A stretch of DNA of 63,998 nt from a virus: positions 1 through 63,998 of IMG/VR virus record IMGVR_UViG_3300043408_000061; one strand, 5' to 3'. Position 1 is the stretch's first letter. Each line of letters opens with the position of its first letter. Of this stretch, positions 61,185-63,998 are shown piece by piece. A model generated the notes under the pieces. That model was not told the DNA's origin. It was given only the letters and a program-made list of their open reading frames with translations, and did not search any database. A program made the position numbers and the translations under genes.

Positions 61185-61386
61185 ATTCAACCCCCTTGAC
61201 AAAGTAATACTTTGCGTTGCTGCGGGATACTGTTCCTTCTTTTTCGTGTGCCTCGTCGTATGCCGCATCAAATGCCGCATCTTGTCTAGCTCGCCTGATT
61301 CGTTCAATGGCTGCCGTCCAATCAGCAGGGCTTCCTGCGGTGGCTTCGTAGTTGAGTATGATTCTGTGCGCTTCGTCTAGTGTCAT
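61159..61386 (-). CDS. hypothetical early protein
   Basis: 75 aa. ATGA overlap with paralog copy 1. Confidence 0.5.
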   Translation of the reverse strand: MTLDEAHRIILNYEATAGSPADWTAAIERIRRARQDAAFDAAYDEAHEKEGTVSRSNAKYYFVKGVEYATGLLHD

Positions 61387-61880
61387 GCGAATATCTCCTT
61401 GAAAATTTCGATTTGGGCTTCACGCTCTGATGCTTCTGCTGCCCATGCTGCTCCACGTGCTGCCCATGCTGCTGCCTGTGATGCTGCCTGTGATGCTGAT
61501 GCTACTGGTTCTACTGCCCGTGATGCGTATGCTGCTGCCCGTGATGCGTATGCTGCTGCTGCTACTGCTTCCCAGCCTGCTGCGTGAAGCTCTGCCTTGG
61601 TCGCAGTGCCGTCGAGATAGCGCTCGGTTACATCGTTGCACGCCTTAGCTGCTGGGTTTAGGTGCTCAACACGTCGGGCGACGGCTAAGGCGAAGCGCTG
61701 AGTGCGCTCAGGTGTTGGCTCAGTACGTAAGCACCAGATTGCATCATCTAAACCATTGCTTTCAAGTACGGTCAGGAGCGATAGCGGTTCGTCATCACCT
61801 TTGGTTTTGCCTAGGTGCTTTAGCAGTTTAGTCCAGCCGTCTGAGCATGGAGAGTGATAGCGGATGTCATTGAGTGTCAT
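61383..61880 (-). CDS. Ala-rich-tail paralog, copy 1
   Basis: 165 aa. Conserved head MTLNDIRYHSPCSDGWTKLL..., a 52-aa variable tract with AAAYASR duplicated, and tail SEREAQIEIFKEIFA. Confidence 0.8.
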   Translation of the reverse strand: MTLNDIRYHSPCSDGWTKLLKHLGKTKGDDEPLSLLTVLESNGLDDAIWCLRTEPTPERTQRFALAVARRVEHLNPAAKACNDVTERYLDGTATKAELHAAGWEAVAAAAYASRAAAYASRAVEPVASASQAASQAAAWAARGAAWAAEASEREAQIEIFKEIFA

Positions 61881-62404
61881 GCGAATATCTCCTTGAAAAT
61901 TTCGATTTGGGCTTCACGCTCTGATGCTGCACGTGCTGCTCCTGCTGCTGCACGTGCTGCGGCTGCCCATGCTGCTGATGATGCTACTGCTGCTGCCTGT
62001 GCTACTGCTGCGTCTGCTGCGTCTACTGCGTGTGCTGCTGACCATGCTGCTGCTGCTGCGTCTGCTGCGTCTGCTGCCCATGCTGCTGCTGCTGCGTCTG
62101 CTGCTGCATCAAGCTCTGCCTCGGTCGCAGTGCCGTCGAGATAGCGTTCGGTTACATCGTTGCACGCCTTAGCTGCTGGGTTTAGGTGCTCAACACGTCG
62201 GACGACGGCTAAGGCGAAGCGCTGAGTGCGCTCAGGTGTAGGCTCAGTACGTAAGCACCAGATTGCATCCTTTAAACCATTGCTTTCGAGTACGGTCAGG
62301 AGTGATAGCGGTTCGTCATCGCCTTTGGTTTTTCCTAGGTGCTTTAGAAGTTTAGTCCAGCCATCTGAGCATGGAGTGCTATAGCGAATGTCATTGAGTG
62401 TCAT
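61877..62404 (-). CDS. Ala-rich-tail paralog, copy 2
   Basis: 175 aa with the same head and tail and a 62-aa variable tract. Confidence 0.8.
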   Translation of the reverse strand: MTLNDIRYSTPCSDGWTKLLKHLGKTKGDDEPLSLLTVLESNGLKDAIWCLRTEPTPERTQRFALAVVRRVEHLNPAAKACNDVTERYLDGTATEAELDAAADAAAAAWAADAADAAAAAWSAAHAVDAADAAVAQAAAVASSAAWAAAARAAAGAARAASEREAQIEIFKEIFA

Positions 62405-62907
62405 GCGAATAGCTCCGTGAAAATTTCTACATGGGCTTCACGCTCTGATGCGTCTGCTGCCCATGCTGCTGATGCTGCCCATGCTGCTGCTGCTGCTGCT
62501 GCTACGGCTGCCCATGATGCTGCGTCTACTGCGTGTGCTGCTGACCATGCTGCTGCTGCTGCGTCTGCTGCGTCTGCTGCCCATGCTGCTGCTGCTGCGT
62601 CTGCTGCTGCATCAAGCTCTGCCTCGGTCGCAGTGCCGTCGAGATAGCGTTCGGTTACATCGTTGCACGCCTTAGCTGCTGGGTTTAGGTGCTCAACACG
62701 TCTAGCGACGGCTAAGGCGAAGCGCTGTGTGCGCTCAGGTGTTGGCTCAGTACGTAAGCACCAGATTGCATCATCTAAACCGTTGCTTTCGAGTACGGTC
62801 AGGAGTGATAGCGGTTCGTCGTCGCCTTTGGTTTTGCCTAGGTGCTTTAGAAGTTTAGTCCAGCCATCTGAGCATGGGCCATGAGAGCGAATGTCATTGA
62901 GTGTCAT
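62401..62907 (-). CDS. Ala-rich-tail paralog, copy 3
   Basis: 168 aa. The first 32 aa of the tract are identical to copy 2, then the two diverge. Confidence 0.8.
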   Translation of the reverse strand: MTLNDIRSHGPCSDGWTKLLKHLGKTKGDDEPLSLLTVLESNGLDDAIWCLRTEPTPERTQRFALAVARRVEHLNPAAKACNDVTERYLDGTATEAELDAAADAAAAAWAADAADAAAAAWSAAHAVDAASWAAVAAAAAAAWAASAAWAADASEREAHVEIFTELFA

Positions 62908-63140
62908 ACTGCGTCCCCTAAGTAGCTGTTGAACTTGGTGCGTGGGTGCGCGGCTGCGTACTGTTTAGCCAGCGTGCGAGTGTCGAACACGATGGGGATG
63001 ATGTCGTGATTTGGAAAGCCCAAGGCGTCGAGCGTTACGAGCACGCTTTTGCCTTGGCTCAGGGCTTGCTTGCGAAGCTGTGCATTGTGGTGGATGACGG
63101 CTTGCAGATTTTGAGTGATGATTTGGGTGATGCCTTGCAT
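62904..63140 (-). CDS. hypothetical protein interrupting the paralog array
   Basis: 78 aa, unrelated sequence. ATGA overlap with copy 3. Confidence 0.55.
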   Translation of the reverse strand: MQGITQIITQNLQAVIHHNAQLRKQALSQGKSVLVTLDALGFPNHDIIPIVFDTRTLAKQYAAAHPRTKFNSYLGDAV

Positions 63141-63143
63141 GGT

Positions 63144-63680
63144 TTAATCCTTAAAAATGGTCTTGAAAATTTCTACATGGGCTTCACGCTCTGTCCATGC
63201 TGCTGCGTCTGCTGCTGCTGCTGCGTCTGCTGCTGCTGCTGCGTCTGCTGCGTATGCTGCTGCTGCTGCTGCTGCTGCTGCGTCTGCTGCTGCTGCTGCT
63301 GCTGCTGCGTCTGCTGCTGCGGCTGCTGCTGCTGCGTCTGCTGCTGCTGCTGCTGCGTCTGCTGCGTCTGCTGCGTCTGCTGCGTCAAGCTCTGCCTCGG
63401 TCGCAGTGCCGTCGAGATAGCGTTCGGTTACCTCGTTGCACGCCTTAGCTGCTGGGCTTAGGTGCTCAATGCGTCGGGCAATAGCTAAGGCGAAGCGCTG
63501 AGTGCGCTCAGGCGTAGGCTCAGTACGTAAGCACCAGATTGCATCATCTAAACCGTTGCTTTCGAGTACGGTCAGGAGTGATAGCGGTTCGTCGTCGCCT
63601 TTGGTTTTGCCTAGGTGCTTTAGCAGTTTAGTCCAGCCGCCTAAACATGGAGTGTGATAGCGAATGTCATTGAGTGTCAT
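63144..63680 (-). CDS. Ala-rich-tail paralog, copy 4
   Basis: 178 aa. The tract is almost pure (A5-9 D)n. Confidence 0.8.
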   Translation of the reverse strand: MTLNDIRYHTPCLGGWTKLLKHLGKTKGDDEPLSLLTVLESNGLDDAIWCLRTEPTPERTQRFALAIARRIEHLSPAAKACNEVTERYLDGTATEAELDAADAADAADAAAAAADAAAAAAAADAAAAAAAADAAAAAAAAAYAADAAAAADAAAAADAAAWTEREAHVEIFKTIFKD

Positions 63681-63998
63681 TGAAATATCTCCCTGAAGAT
63701 TTCGATTTGGGCTTCACGCTCTGATGCTGCTGCCCGTGATGCGTCTGCTGCCCCTGCTGCTGCTGCTGCTGCTGACCATGCTGCGTCTGCTGCTACTACG
63801 GCTGCCCGTGCTGCCCGTGCTGCTGCTTCTGCGTCTGCTGCGTATGCTGCTGCTGCTGCTGCTGCTGCTGCTGCTGCTGCCCATGCTGCTTTCCATGATG
63901 CTGTGTCTTCTGCTGCGTGTGCTGCTGCCCGTGATGCGTCAAGCTCTGCCTTGGTCGCAGTGCCGTTAAGGTATCGCTCTACAACATCGTTGCACGCC
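63677..63998 (-). CDS. Ala-rich-tail paralog, copy 5, C-terminal part (continues from 363..1 across the junction; whole gene 558 nt)
   Basis: My own translation ends ...AWSAAAAAAGAADASRAAASEREAQIEIFREIFQ*. The stop forms an ATGA overlap with the copy 4 start. Confidence 0.75.
   Translation of the reverse strand, partial: ACNDVVERYLNGTATKAELDASRAAAHAAEDTASWKAAWAAAAAAAAAAAAYAADAEAAARAARAAVVAADAAWSAAAAAAGAADASRAAASEREAQIEIFREIFQ
63845..63880. repeat. perfect (TGC)12 run, encoding Ala12 on the minus strand
   Basis: Counted directly. It spans the start of the 127-nt assembly overlap. Confidence 0.9.
63872..63998. repeat. 127-nt terminal overlap identical to 1..127
   Basis: See the first feature. 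Confidence 0.95.

Follow-up and report, generated by a model that had tools for sequence, protein, structure and literature searches.

A phage sequence of 63,998 nt (the whole stretch of DNA analysed, hereafter the window) carries on its minus strand five paralogous genes, recognized as ORFs with their translations, whose products of 165–185 aa join a conserved head to a variable Ala-rich tail and all belong to the family PHROG 18326. We propose, tentatively and at a little less than an even chance for the reading as a whole, that this five-copy array encodes Imm5_like-related proteins with tails shaped by slippage and recombination and with an immunity-type binding role.

Anatomy of the array

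The five minus-strand paralogs with head and variable tail described in an earlier sequence-only reading of this DNA are borne out by the ORFs and translations (Table 1; copies c1–c5). Both anchors that it claimed for all copies, an N-terminal MTLNDIR...AEL and a C-terminal (S/T)EREA(Q/H)(I/V)EIF, are present in 5/5, and the Ala12 run of c5, the AAAYASR duplication of c1 and the (A5–9 D)n pattern of c4, the tail DNA of which is a period-27 repeat of 6.6 copies, were all found as described. ATGA stop/start overlaps, said to mark most gene junctions, are seen at c5/c4, c3/c2 and c2/c1, as well as between the 78-aa gene and c3 and between c1 and the next gene. The description ‘five tandem’ holds for the number of copies but not for an uninterrupted array, since the 78-aa gene, for which Pfam, PHROG and PADLOC searches returned no match, separates c3 from c4. 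Similarly, c5 does run across the window junction as proposed, but only with the terminal overlap removed: the last 127 nt of the window equal the first 127 nt exactly, joining the two ends directly throws the product out of frame, and the whole gene (63677–63871 plus 1–363) encodes 185 aa.

Table 1. Positions in the window of the array genes, their tracts and associated features
Feature	Position	Strand	Description
Copy 1 (c1)	61383..61880	-	165 aa; head, Ala-rich tail and SEREAQIEIFKEIFA end; ORF, translation
c1 tract	61431..61583	-	51 aa, 53% Ala; Ala codons GCA 27/27
Copy 2 (c2)	61877..62404	-	175 aa; ORF, translation, PHROG 18326
c2 tract	61925..62107	-	61 aa, 69% Ala; Ala codons GCA 41/42
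Copy 3 (c3)	62401..62907	-	168 aa; ORF, translation, PHROG 18326
c3 tract	62449..62610	-	54 aa, 70% Ala; (GCA)7 run
78-aa gene	62904..63140	-	Between c3 and c4, no kin of the array genes; ORF
Copy 4 (c4)	63144..63680	-	178 aa; tail 81% Ala, (A5–9 D)n type, net charge -9
c4 tract	63192..63383	-	64 aa, 81% Ala; (GCA)9 and (GCA)8 runs
Copy 5 (c5), 3' part	63677..63871	-	Rear of tail and C-terminal anchor
c5 tract, distal part	63725..63871, continuing in 1–66	-	Total 71 aa, 66% Ala; junction-spanning (GCA)12
Copy 5 (c5), 5' part	1..363	-	Head and tail start, including part of the (GCA)12 run
Terminal overlap	63872..63998		Exact repeat of window 1–127; assembly circularisation overlap, no extra sequence
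Best sigma-70-like site	3682..3711	-	TTTACA-18-TATATT; candidate operon promoter in an AT-rich gap

Copy number, assembly and coding strand

Because c2 and c3 share an exact repeat of 185 nt and the contig was assembled from short reads at k=127, the pairing of head and tail in these two copies depends on the assembler's repeat resolution; moreover, the circular junction lies inside c5, and contigs of relatives often end at these genes (L007, L140). That the assembly inflated, collapsed or shuffled the repeat, giving a wrong copy number or wrong head–tail pairing, is nevertheless very improbable, as all five heads are distinct, with differences spaced less than 127 nt apart, and the 127-nt overlap sequence occurs in c5 alone. 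In a JGI contig that has the array in its interior, 8498 nt spanning the window junction match at 100% identity, a 64,002-nt contig in another permutation has the same sequence throughout the array, c5 runs contiguous in L085, and the order and junctions of c3-c2-c1 recur in a 923-nt contig obtained from a third sample. Relatives, too, carry 3–6 copies.

Public annotation reads the region differently: for four of the five copies the JGI gene caller placed ORFs on the opposite strand, and such Leu-rich plus-strand ORFs (72–87 aa) are open in the window. The possibility that these are the real genes, or that the region is non-coding repeat DNA, can be practically dismissed, since the minus-frame head and C-terminal anchor are kept across hundreds of relatives that use other Ala codons, head changes are mostly synonymous in the minus frame, every tract indel is a multiple of 3 and the minus-strand genes are joined by ATGA coupling. 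As a consequence of the public calls lying on the wrong strand over four of five copies, genes of the array type are under-represented in protein databases.

The family PHROG 18326

The profile search that the sequence-only reading had called for places all five copies in PHROG 18326, a family without assigned function (E 2.4e-32 to 4.3e-38, from residue 2 to about residue 150–183; c1, whose product is the database protein P0001, at 1.2e-33 and c5 at 4.3e-38). The family comprises 10,558 clusters at E<=1e-3 and 651 at E<=1e-30. It is characterized by an N-terminal module of its own, about 55 residues long, in which Cys12, Trp49 and Cys50 are invariant. Members include gp46 of Pseudomonas phage AF (AFV50659.1), with matching regions in PPpW-3, phiEt88 and Burkholderia phage Bcep176 (gp36). 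The architecture of a head followed by AAW/AARD repeats also occurs in AF gp46, in Erwinia phage phiEt88 and in a Manatee Spring phage, and in these three the gene is placed between the repressor and erf/exo/recT genes. In a prophage relative the gene lies a short way downstream of a gene for a cI-like HTH repressor, separated from it by one gene on the opposite strand, and heads a same-strand run of small genes that has an integrase at its end.

Relationship to Imm5_like proteins

The sequence-only reading had suggested a likeness to ‘Imm-5-like’ immunity proteins. This holds at the level of fold or superfamily and fails for Pfam matches of the window's own proteins, none of which matched any Pfam or NCBIfam profile even at E<=1 (nor, specifically, PF14423 Imm5). 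Among relatives, 5/148 representatives match PF21805 Imm5_like at E<=0.01 (best E 3.1e-10), and 1/62 and 3/148 match PF14423 at E of about 1e-3. Since the window proteins have no match and some relatives do, membership of PF21805 is transitive only. In P0258, residues 60–163 align to positions 9–115 of the 129 in PF21805, with a score of 20.1 bits that is under the gathering score of 25.

Structure prediction, which had also been suggested, gave an AlphaFold2 model of ten helices (pLDDT 87.3, pTM 0.82), with lower confidence in the tail (pLDDT 62–82). In this model the tail would form four Ala-rich helices, with D/W/R/Y/S residues breaking the Ala runs. Foldseek against BFVD retrieved a viral protein, A0A6J5RNF9, annotated as ‘Imm-5-like domain-containing protein’ (E 7.5e-5, probability 1.00, TM 0.70; rmsd 4.0 over 201 columns, both structures being predictions). 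Foldseek and PDB profile searches against solved structures gave no match. The SsdA deaminase immunity protein (SsdAI; 7jtu_B) was considered and rejected: it appeared in Foldseek with the first model at E 3.5 and TM 0.37, was absent with a second model, and 7JTU chain B was not matched in the PDB profile searches.

On the basis of the models, we suggest that the proteins are all-alpha and that a domain distantly related to Imm5_like extends from the rear half of the head through the tail; from the profile alignments, we judge the tail region to share homology with the last two thirds of the Imm5_like domain. The immunity role of Imm5 and Imm5_like is itself no more than a prediction, and a literature search on both found no experiment.

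Codon composition of the tracts

The tails of the five copies are 53–81% Ala. On the coding strand GCA accounts for 202/206 tract Ala codons and GCC for 4/206, with no GCT or GCG, against a background of 34% GCA among the 1359 Ala codons of 20 long ORFs elsewhere in the same genome. The GCA tract is interrupted mainly by GAC, TGG, TCA, CGN and TAC, and holds perfect (GCA)7–12 runs. In other lineages the tracts are homogeneous for GCT, GCC or GCG instead. The tail sequence of the window phage thus appears to have been overwritten by imperfect GCA triplet repeats. The spacing of about 4 residues between non-Ala residues, seen family-wide, is largely lost in the window's tails, which relaxed constraint fits as well as specificity tuning does.

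Selection and mosaicism among the copies

The heads are 88–95% identical in DNA, and synonymous codon differences outnumber non-synonymous ones in 9/10 copy pairs, which points to heads held by purifying selection. The ‘recent amplification’ suggested earlier is not sustained by heads that stand 5–12% apart, mostly at synonymous sites; the copies are better seen, from these comparisons, as genes of greater age that purifying selection has kept, with gene conversion in patches. In particular, c2 and c3 show 17 differences in their first 205 nt and are then identical for 185 nt (gene nt 206–390), for which P is about 1e-7 at that divergence, and the last 52 nt of c1 and c2 are identical. It had been noted that c2 and c3 share 32 tract residues before diverging; the sharing is real and, given the 185-nt identical run, the figure is 31.

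Natural variation in relatives

Comparison of related genomes, a further suggestion of the sequence-only reading, shows that both copy number and tract length vary. In three cases in which near-identical genomes could be compared cleanly, all or most of the difference comes from in-frame indels in the tract: L010 and L011 have 0 mismatches over 8016 nt and a single 21-nt tract indel; L141 and L142 differ within the tract alone (+24 nt in one, +18 nt in the other); and the L140 allele of c2 (P0002, from another sample) has a 48-nt shorter tract, with a single synonymous change in the roughly 875 nt beyond it. Among lineage groups with near-identical heads, tract length differs in 6/18, always by multiples of 3, and the alleles differ by whole-unit indels with flanking short direct repeats. 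These in-frame indels, and the c2/c3 mosaic, agree with the earlier view of the tract DNA as prone to slippage and recombination. We suggest that the tails gain and lose repeat units in frame, through slippage during replication or unequal recombination at short direct repeats, and that patchy recombination between copies may provide a second route.

The earlier term ‘self-diversifying’ would imply more than this. One might think of a diversity-generating retroelement, or of some other system dedicated to hypermutation, acting on the tracts, because tracts differ among otherwise identical genomes, and because close relatives often have Y/N/H/D (NAC codons) at the interruptions, superficially like the variable codons of such retroelements. 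Nonetheless, no reverse transcriptase was found among the scanned ORFs of at least 250 aa (all but those at 27525–28346 and 31805–32707), and no copy of a template repeat lies outside the array. Further, third-position A is kept in 98% of tract Ala codons, the opposite of adenine mutagenesis, the allele differences are unit indels of the kind described above, and a related array of three copies is the same in three samples that differ by 3–6% in its flank. Such programmed diversification thus has only a slender chance of being correct; with no reverse transcriptase in these ORFs and no adenine-specific mutation pattern, diversification looks like slippage and inter-copy recombination.

A literature search found no described array of this kind, as the sequence-only reading had supposed; nevertheless, the array is not unique, since arrays of 2–6 copies recur among relatives (four in L031, L087 and L088, five in L184 and six in L144). 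A single copy is present in 192/217 relative loci.

Genomic context and proposed function

The array belongs to a leftward gene string, upstream of which lies the best sigma-70-like site (Table 1). As the region has 12 promoter-like sites against a shuffled expectation of 10.2, and so no excess, this promoter candidate is weak. Pfam and PHROGs searches of 10 neighbouring window genes revealed no toxin domain or informative neighbour, and the neighbours at related loci are small genes without assigned function and DUF6197. The family lies in the early accessory region of phages, in which anti-defence genes concentrate. We infer early expression from gene order and the one weak promoter-like site, and an anti-defence context from gene order.

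The array proteins, made early from the leftward operon, may act as stoichiometric immunity-type binders or neutralisers of host or competitor effectors, that is, as putative inhibitors of toxins or defence systems. The conserved head would serve as a scaffold, and the variable helical rear, multiplied over the paralogs, would set or widen the target range, such that the array could be viewed as a homogeneous polyimmunity locus in phage form.

A rival account is that the head does all of the function and that the Ala-rich tail merely fills space as a helix tolerant of change, drifting in length and sequence because GCA repeats are unstable, with the copies due to unequal crossing-over or to selection for dosage and forming no repertoire of specificities. 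The c4 tail, 81% Ala with irregular Asp spacing, would suit it, as would tails that have almost no helical periodicity of non-Ala residues, a codon homogeneity suggestive of mutation pressure and the sufficiency of one copy in most relatives. It sits less well with a tail that is probably homologous to part of Imm5_like and modelled as packed helices, with a C-terminal anchor that is conserved and in frame after every tract, and with heads that are intact in all copies and apparently under purifying selection. Moreover, the arrays of 5–6 paralogs in L144 and L184 have ordinary, non-repetitive and yet strongly diverged tails, so diversified rear halves seem to be more than a by-product of repeats. 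We consider this neutral drift unlikely on balance, while still deserving serious weight.

The binding role of the array proteins in its most far-reaching form, a phage-borne repertoire of immunity-type inhibitors whose target-binding rears keep changing through triplet-repeat slippage and recombination between copies, is distinctly improbable on our assessment. If true, such a repertoire would keep the phage abreast of polymorphic host toxins or abortive-infection effectors; it would be the viral equivalent of a bacterial polyimmunity locus endowed with the mutability of contingency loci, within a family found across thousands of phage lineages. PHROG 18326, with its thousands of sequence clusters, is among the larger phage protein families without assigned function; it is now tied to the predicted Imm5_like immunity fold, and the variable part of the protein is its rear half. 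Paralog arrays of 2–6 arise repeatedly, and in several lineages an in-frame repeat indel at this place is the only or main difference between otherwise near-identical phage genomes. This gives a concrete, testable picture of a fast-evolving phage protein and recommends the family for screening against defence systems that are based on toxins.

Comparison with known systems

Phages AF and phiEt88 resemble the window phage in family, in the head with (AAxx)n tail and in early-left position. The known phages of PHROG 18326 have one copy with a W/R/D-punctuated tail, in contrast to five copies with tails almost purely GCA-coded, and their members are all annotated as hypothetical proteins. PF21805 and PF14423 proteins share with the window family an all-alpha fold and an aligned region formed by the rear of the head and the tail. 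Unlike Imm5_like, however, the window family has the extra N-terminal module with its invariant Cys and Trp residues and is set in a phage early operon rather than in a toxin–immunity pair, and the tail in the window phage is a low-complexity GCA-repeat sequence.

Diversity-generating retroelements likewise leave a phage protein conserved apart from a variable C-terminal region; the window array differs from them in its unit indels, and in having no adenine-specific pattern, template repeat or (in the scanned ORFs) reverse transcriptase. With its (GCA)7–12 runs and a repeat-number polymorphism comprising indels of 21, 24/18 and 48 nt, the array has the features of coding tandem repeats of the contingency type. 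Bacterial contingency loci and VNTR genes are like it in their short perfect in-gene repeats and in length polymorphism between otherwise identical genomes. Unlike in on/off-switching contingency loci, the repeat unit is a triplet, and hence tract indels alter protein length and sequence with no on/off switching.

Imm5 and homogeneous polyimmunity loci have been described (PMC3482391, PMC3239186); the latter, on bacterial chromosomes, are known for SUKH, Imm6, Imm11, Imm28, Imm33, Imm36 and Imm41, Imm5 not being among them (Zhang et al. 2012, PMC3482391). Like the window array, such loci consist of paralogs in tandem from a single family of small proteins, with binding-type regions that have diverged and no toxin gene alongside. 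Here the same layout, with five copies and up to six in L144, is phage-borne, and its immunity function is putative.

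Array anatomy and assembly

The genes of the array are real and the assembly that carries them is sound. The first 127 nt of the window repeat its last 127 nt exactly (63872-63998 versus 1-127), a signature of assembly at k=127, and because this overlap is exact the window sequence is a 63,871-bp circular or terminally redundant assembly with k-mer overlap. Since the (GCA)12 run of c5 contains the window junction, a plain end-to-start join yields a false frameshift in that copy. A 64,002-nt JGI contig that has the array in its interior shows 100% identity across the junction over 8,498 nt, and a third sample yielded a 923-nt contig that runs from the end of c3 through an allele of c2 to the start of c1. 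All copies (c1 to c5) have the start MTLNDIR...AEL and the end (S/T)EREA(Q/H)(I/V)EIF in common, and four-base ATGA overlaps occur at c5/c4, between the 78-aa gene and c3, at c3/c2 and c2/c1, and between c1 and the next gene. The five-paralog array of heads and tails was well described by the sequence-only reading, and the details that it listed, namely Ala12 in c5, a duplicated AAAYASR in c1, (A5-9 D)n in c4 and a common tract start in c2 and c3, are all present.

Features of the window and of contigs carrying related genes (L086, L141 and L142); identities of window genes are from PHROG and Pfam matches
Feature	Location	Strand	Remarks
c1	61383-61880	minus	165 aa
c2	61877-62404	minus	175 aa
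c3	62401-62907	minus	168 aa
78-aa gene	62904-63140		between c3 and c4; unrelated to c1-c5
c4	63144-63680	minus	178 aa
c5	63677-63871 joined to 1-363	minus	185 aa; reading frame needs overlap removed
Terminase large subunit	8212-9621	plus	PHROG/Pfam
Portal/adaptor-type protein		plus	PHROG/Pfam
Internal virion protein		plus	PHROG/Pfam
2652-aa ORF	35801-43759	plus	sole match phrog_21376 (no annotated function)
SNF2-type helicase, DNA polymerase, exonuclease, primase-helicase		minus	PHROG/Pfam
DUF6197 genes, L086	5007-5741
DUF6197 genes, L141	135-491, 1199-1567
DUF6197 genes, L142	844-3806

Strand and frame of coding

Over their first 294 nt the heads are 88-95% identical between copies, and nine of the ten copy pairs have more synonymous than non-synonymous codon differences. 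The coding frame is that of the minus strand, since head and C-terminal anchor are kept across hundreds of relatives that use different Ala codons, and since every indel is a multiple of three. In the public JGI gene calls, Leu-rich opposite-strand ORFs of 75-83 aa lie over four of the five copies (1912-3957 of L085, the JGI equivalent of the array, corresponding to window copies 2-5), and the protein database holds copy 1 alone of the five (P0001). Public data probably under-count such genes. Four database proteins (P0150, P0151, P0175 and P0220) have normal heads and a tract in another frame (RMRQRM.., GLPHGVS.., LRGTLRV..), and are either genuine frameshift alleles or repeat indel errors. 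Another, P0121 (590 aa), carries two head modules and then a long unrelated C-terminal part, and represents either a fusion or read-through across tandem copies.

Tract DNA and its natural polymorphism

The tails are 53-81% Ala, and GCA accounts for 202 of their 206 Ala codons, whereas its share is 34% both in the heads and across 20 of the genome's long ORFs. The longest perfect (GCA)n runs comprise 12 units in c5, 9 and 8 in c4 and 7 in c3; the sole such run outside the array is a (TGC)8 at 2385-2408, in a small ORF that lies upstream of the array and reads it, on the minus strand, as (GCA)8 or Ala8. Tails of other lineages are homogeneous for another Ala codon (GCT at 0.96 in contig L040, GCC at 0.97 in L025 and GCG at 0.90-0.95 in L019), and since the codon differs by lineage, repeat expansion arose independently in different lineages.

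That the tracts vary in nature is evident from three clean comparisons. Contigs L010 and L011 have no mismatch in 8,016 aligned nt and differ solely by an in-frame 21-nt tract insertion (AAWAAAR). Over the 1,571 nt aligned between L141 and L142, the differences are confined to the tract, with an extra 24-nt unit in one and an extra 18 nt in the other. Finally, c2 of the window and its allele from another sample (L140) show one synonymous change in ~875 nt outside the tract, and within it an in-frame 48-nt deletion between GCAGCATGG(G/T)CAGCAG direct repeats together with two altered codons. More generally, tract length differs in 6 of 18 lineage groups with near-identical heads, always by a multiple of three, in a comparison based on contigs because that of identical-head database proteins is biased by merging at 90% identity. 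A related three-copy array, the tracts of which are less codon-homogeneous, has one substitution across three samples while its flank differs by 3-6%, which speaks against a very high rate of tract change. Further alleles of the window phage were sought in metagenome contigs by an exact 24-mer scan, with no matches, and a protein-based scan of such contigs returned relatives only (identity ≤65%).

Exchange between copies may also have contributed. Copies c2 and c3 differ at 17 positions in their first 205 nt, are identical over the next 185 nt (P ~1e-7 by chance at their divergence) and diverge thereafter, a comparison in which the pairing of 5' and 3' parts rests on the assembler's repeat resolution because the exact 185-nt repeat exceeds the assembler k; the last 52 nt are common to c1 and c2. 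These patches of identity are mosaic, as expected from inter-copy recombination or gene conversion.

The indels comprise whole repeat units with short direct repeats on either side, the tracts keep the A of GCA, no reverse transcriptase was found among the long ORFs scanned (27525-28346 and 31805-32707 lying outside the scan), and no template repeat was found outside the array. Diversity generated by a retroelement is rejected on the conserved A and the lack of a reverse transcriptase in the ORFs scanned, and all four observations leave unsupported the earlier description of the array as 'self-diversifying', if that implies a dedicated system. We suggest that the tracts would change by replication slippage or unequal recombination, supplemented by inter-copy exchange, as the simplest account.

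Family, copy number and fold

All copies match PHROG 18326 (E 1e-32 to 4e-38), a family with no annotated function, and the window array is not unique. An exhaustive profile search gave 10,558 clusters (50% identity) at E≤1e-3, 2,986 at E≤1e-10 and 651 at E≤1e-30, and some of the weakest matches may be due to the Ala-rich region; relatives lie on at least 476 IMG/VR contigs. Copies per locus, which are lower bounds as many contigs are short, number one at 192 of 217 loci, two at 16, three at 3, four at 3 (L031, L087 and L088), five at 2 (the window phage, L085, and L184) and six at 1 (L144). In the close clade (head identity 72-83%) 2-4 copies are typical, with ATGA coupling of several among them. 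In a distant lineage, L144 (six copies, 921-5429) and L184 (five, 1954-5425) carry tandem paralogs whose tails, neither repetitive nor Ala-rich, have diverged strongly among themselves; arrays with diversified rear halves consequently recur in the family and are not peculiar to the window or to GCA repeats.

Single-copy relatives were found by tblastn in Pseudomonas phages AF and PPpW-3, Erwinia phage phiEt88, Burkholderia phage Bcep176 and Vibrio phages, and in AF, phiEt88 and an uncultured Manatee Spring phage the conserved head is followed by (AARDAAWAAAW)n-type repeats. A scan of GTDB genomes found distant copies only, mostly on MAG contigs, and gave no host assignment; neither the array nor 24 kb of the genome had a megablast match among 50,697 phage records.

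An AlphaFold2 model from a 59-sequence alignment is all-alpha (pLDDT 87.3, pTM 0.82), with four helices in the tail (pLDDT 62-82). Among predicted viral structures it matches a protein annotated as 'Imm-5-like domain-containing' (E 7.5e-5, TM 0.70). No solved structure was matched significantly by fold (two models) or by PDB sequence profile (run twice); a weak match to 7jtu_B, the immunity protein of the SsdA deaminase toxin, was lost with the second model and is treated as chance. Pfam and NCBIfam searches with the window proteins gave nothing meaningful (Pfam, no matches). Among 148 family representatives, Imm5_like (PF21805) was found in five (best E 3.1e-10) and Imm5 (PF14423) in three, and the best PF21805 match would, from the relation of score to E-value, exceed the 25-bit gathering score. 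In the database protein P0258, residues 60-163 align with positions 9-115 of the 129 in the PF21805 profile, so that the Imm5_like-related domain takes in the tail together with the rear of the head, leaving the first ~55 residues as a family-specific module. The 'Imm-5-like' resemblance named by the sequence-only reading is borne out at the level of fold and superfamily.

Genomic neighbourhood

The array lies within a long minus-strand string of small uncharacterized genes upstream of the replication genes, and its timing would be 'early', judging from gene order. The best minus-strand promoter-like site (3682-3711) falls in an AT-rich gap, such sites not being enriched in the region. The first gene of the leftward string (3103-3543, 146 aa) has paired CxxC motifs at both ends, is Zn-ribbon-like and matches only PHROGs with no annotated function. 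The 2652-aa ORF may encode a giant virion or injected protein. A 385-aa ORF (15863-17020) in the structural region carries GLEYA/PA14 carbohydrate-binding domains (E 5e-8 and 1e-6) and is a candidate for receptor binding or decoration. Neighbouring window genes gave no functional clue in Pfam or PHROG (10 neighbours without a Pfam match), no PADLOC defence model was matched, and an AbiEii match on a relative (E 0.009) was disregarded.

In phages AF and phiEt88 the family gene sits between the repressor and the erf/exo/recT genes. In a prophage a single opposite-strand gene separates it from a cI-like repressor gene just upstream, and it leads a same-strand run of small genes ending at the integrase. 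In prophage contig L091, the opposite-strand gene (6939-7826) adjoining the single family member has a faint HEPN match and a cI-like repressor beside it. Small DUF6197 (PF19698) genes are multi-copy in related phages, with up to five in L142, and are interleaved with family members, which makes them a second amplified small-gene family in the same region.

Discussion

We consider that the array is best explained by its anatomy, repeat-driven tract evolution and a repertoire of inhibitors taken together, a reading that as a whole we hold tentatively, a little short of an even call. Within it the anatomy is near-certain and our confidence in repeat-driven tract evolution is high; the inhibitor-repertoire function is possible though rather doubtful. 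A binding or neutralizing, immunity-type role is a candidate supported by the Imm5_like relationship, by the early-left accessory position in known phages, by purifying selection on the heads and by the repeated evolution of arrays with diversified rear halves. It is weakened in that Imm5-type families are themselves immunity proteins by prediction only, and in that no partner or toxin gene was found near the array with Pfam, PHROG or PADLOC. Moreover, the window tails are so Ala-rich and irregular that relaxed constraint on the tail is a serious alternative, albeit one that we regard as less likely than not.

Imm5 was defined as a predicted immunity protein, mostly alpha-helical, that is linked to DYW-clade deaminase and CdiA-CT toxins (PMC3482391, PMC3239186). 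We found no experimental work on Imm5_like or PHROG 18326 in the literature, and searches on PF21805, Imm-5-like, phrog_18326 and Ala-rich or tandem-paralog phage genes returned no papers. Experiments on this uncharacterized family would be worthwhile, given its size and the natural polymorphism of the tracts. The array adds no new category; its fold (Imm5_like), its polyimmunity-style arrangement and its polymorphism of triplet repeats within coding sequence are all of kinds already known. The paralog arrays with diversified rear halves described here resemble the homogeneous polyimmunity loci of bacteria (PMC3482391).
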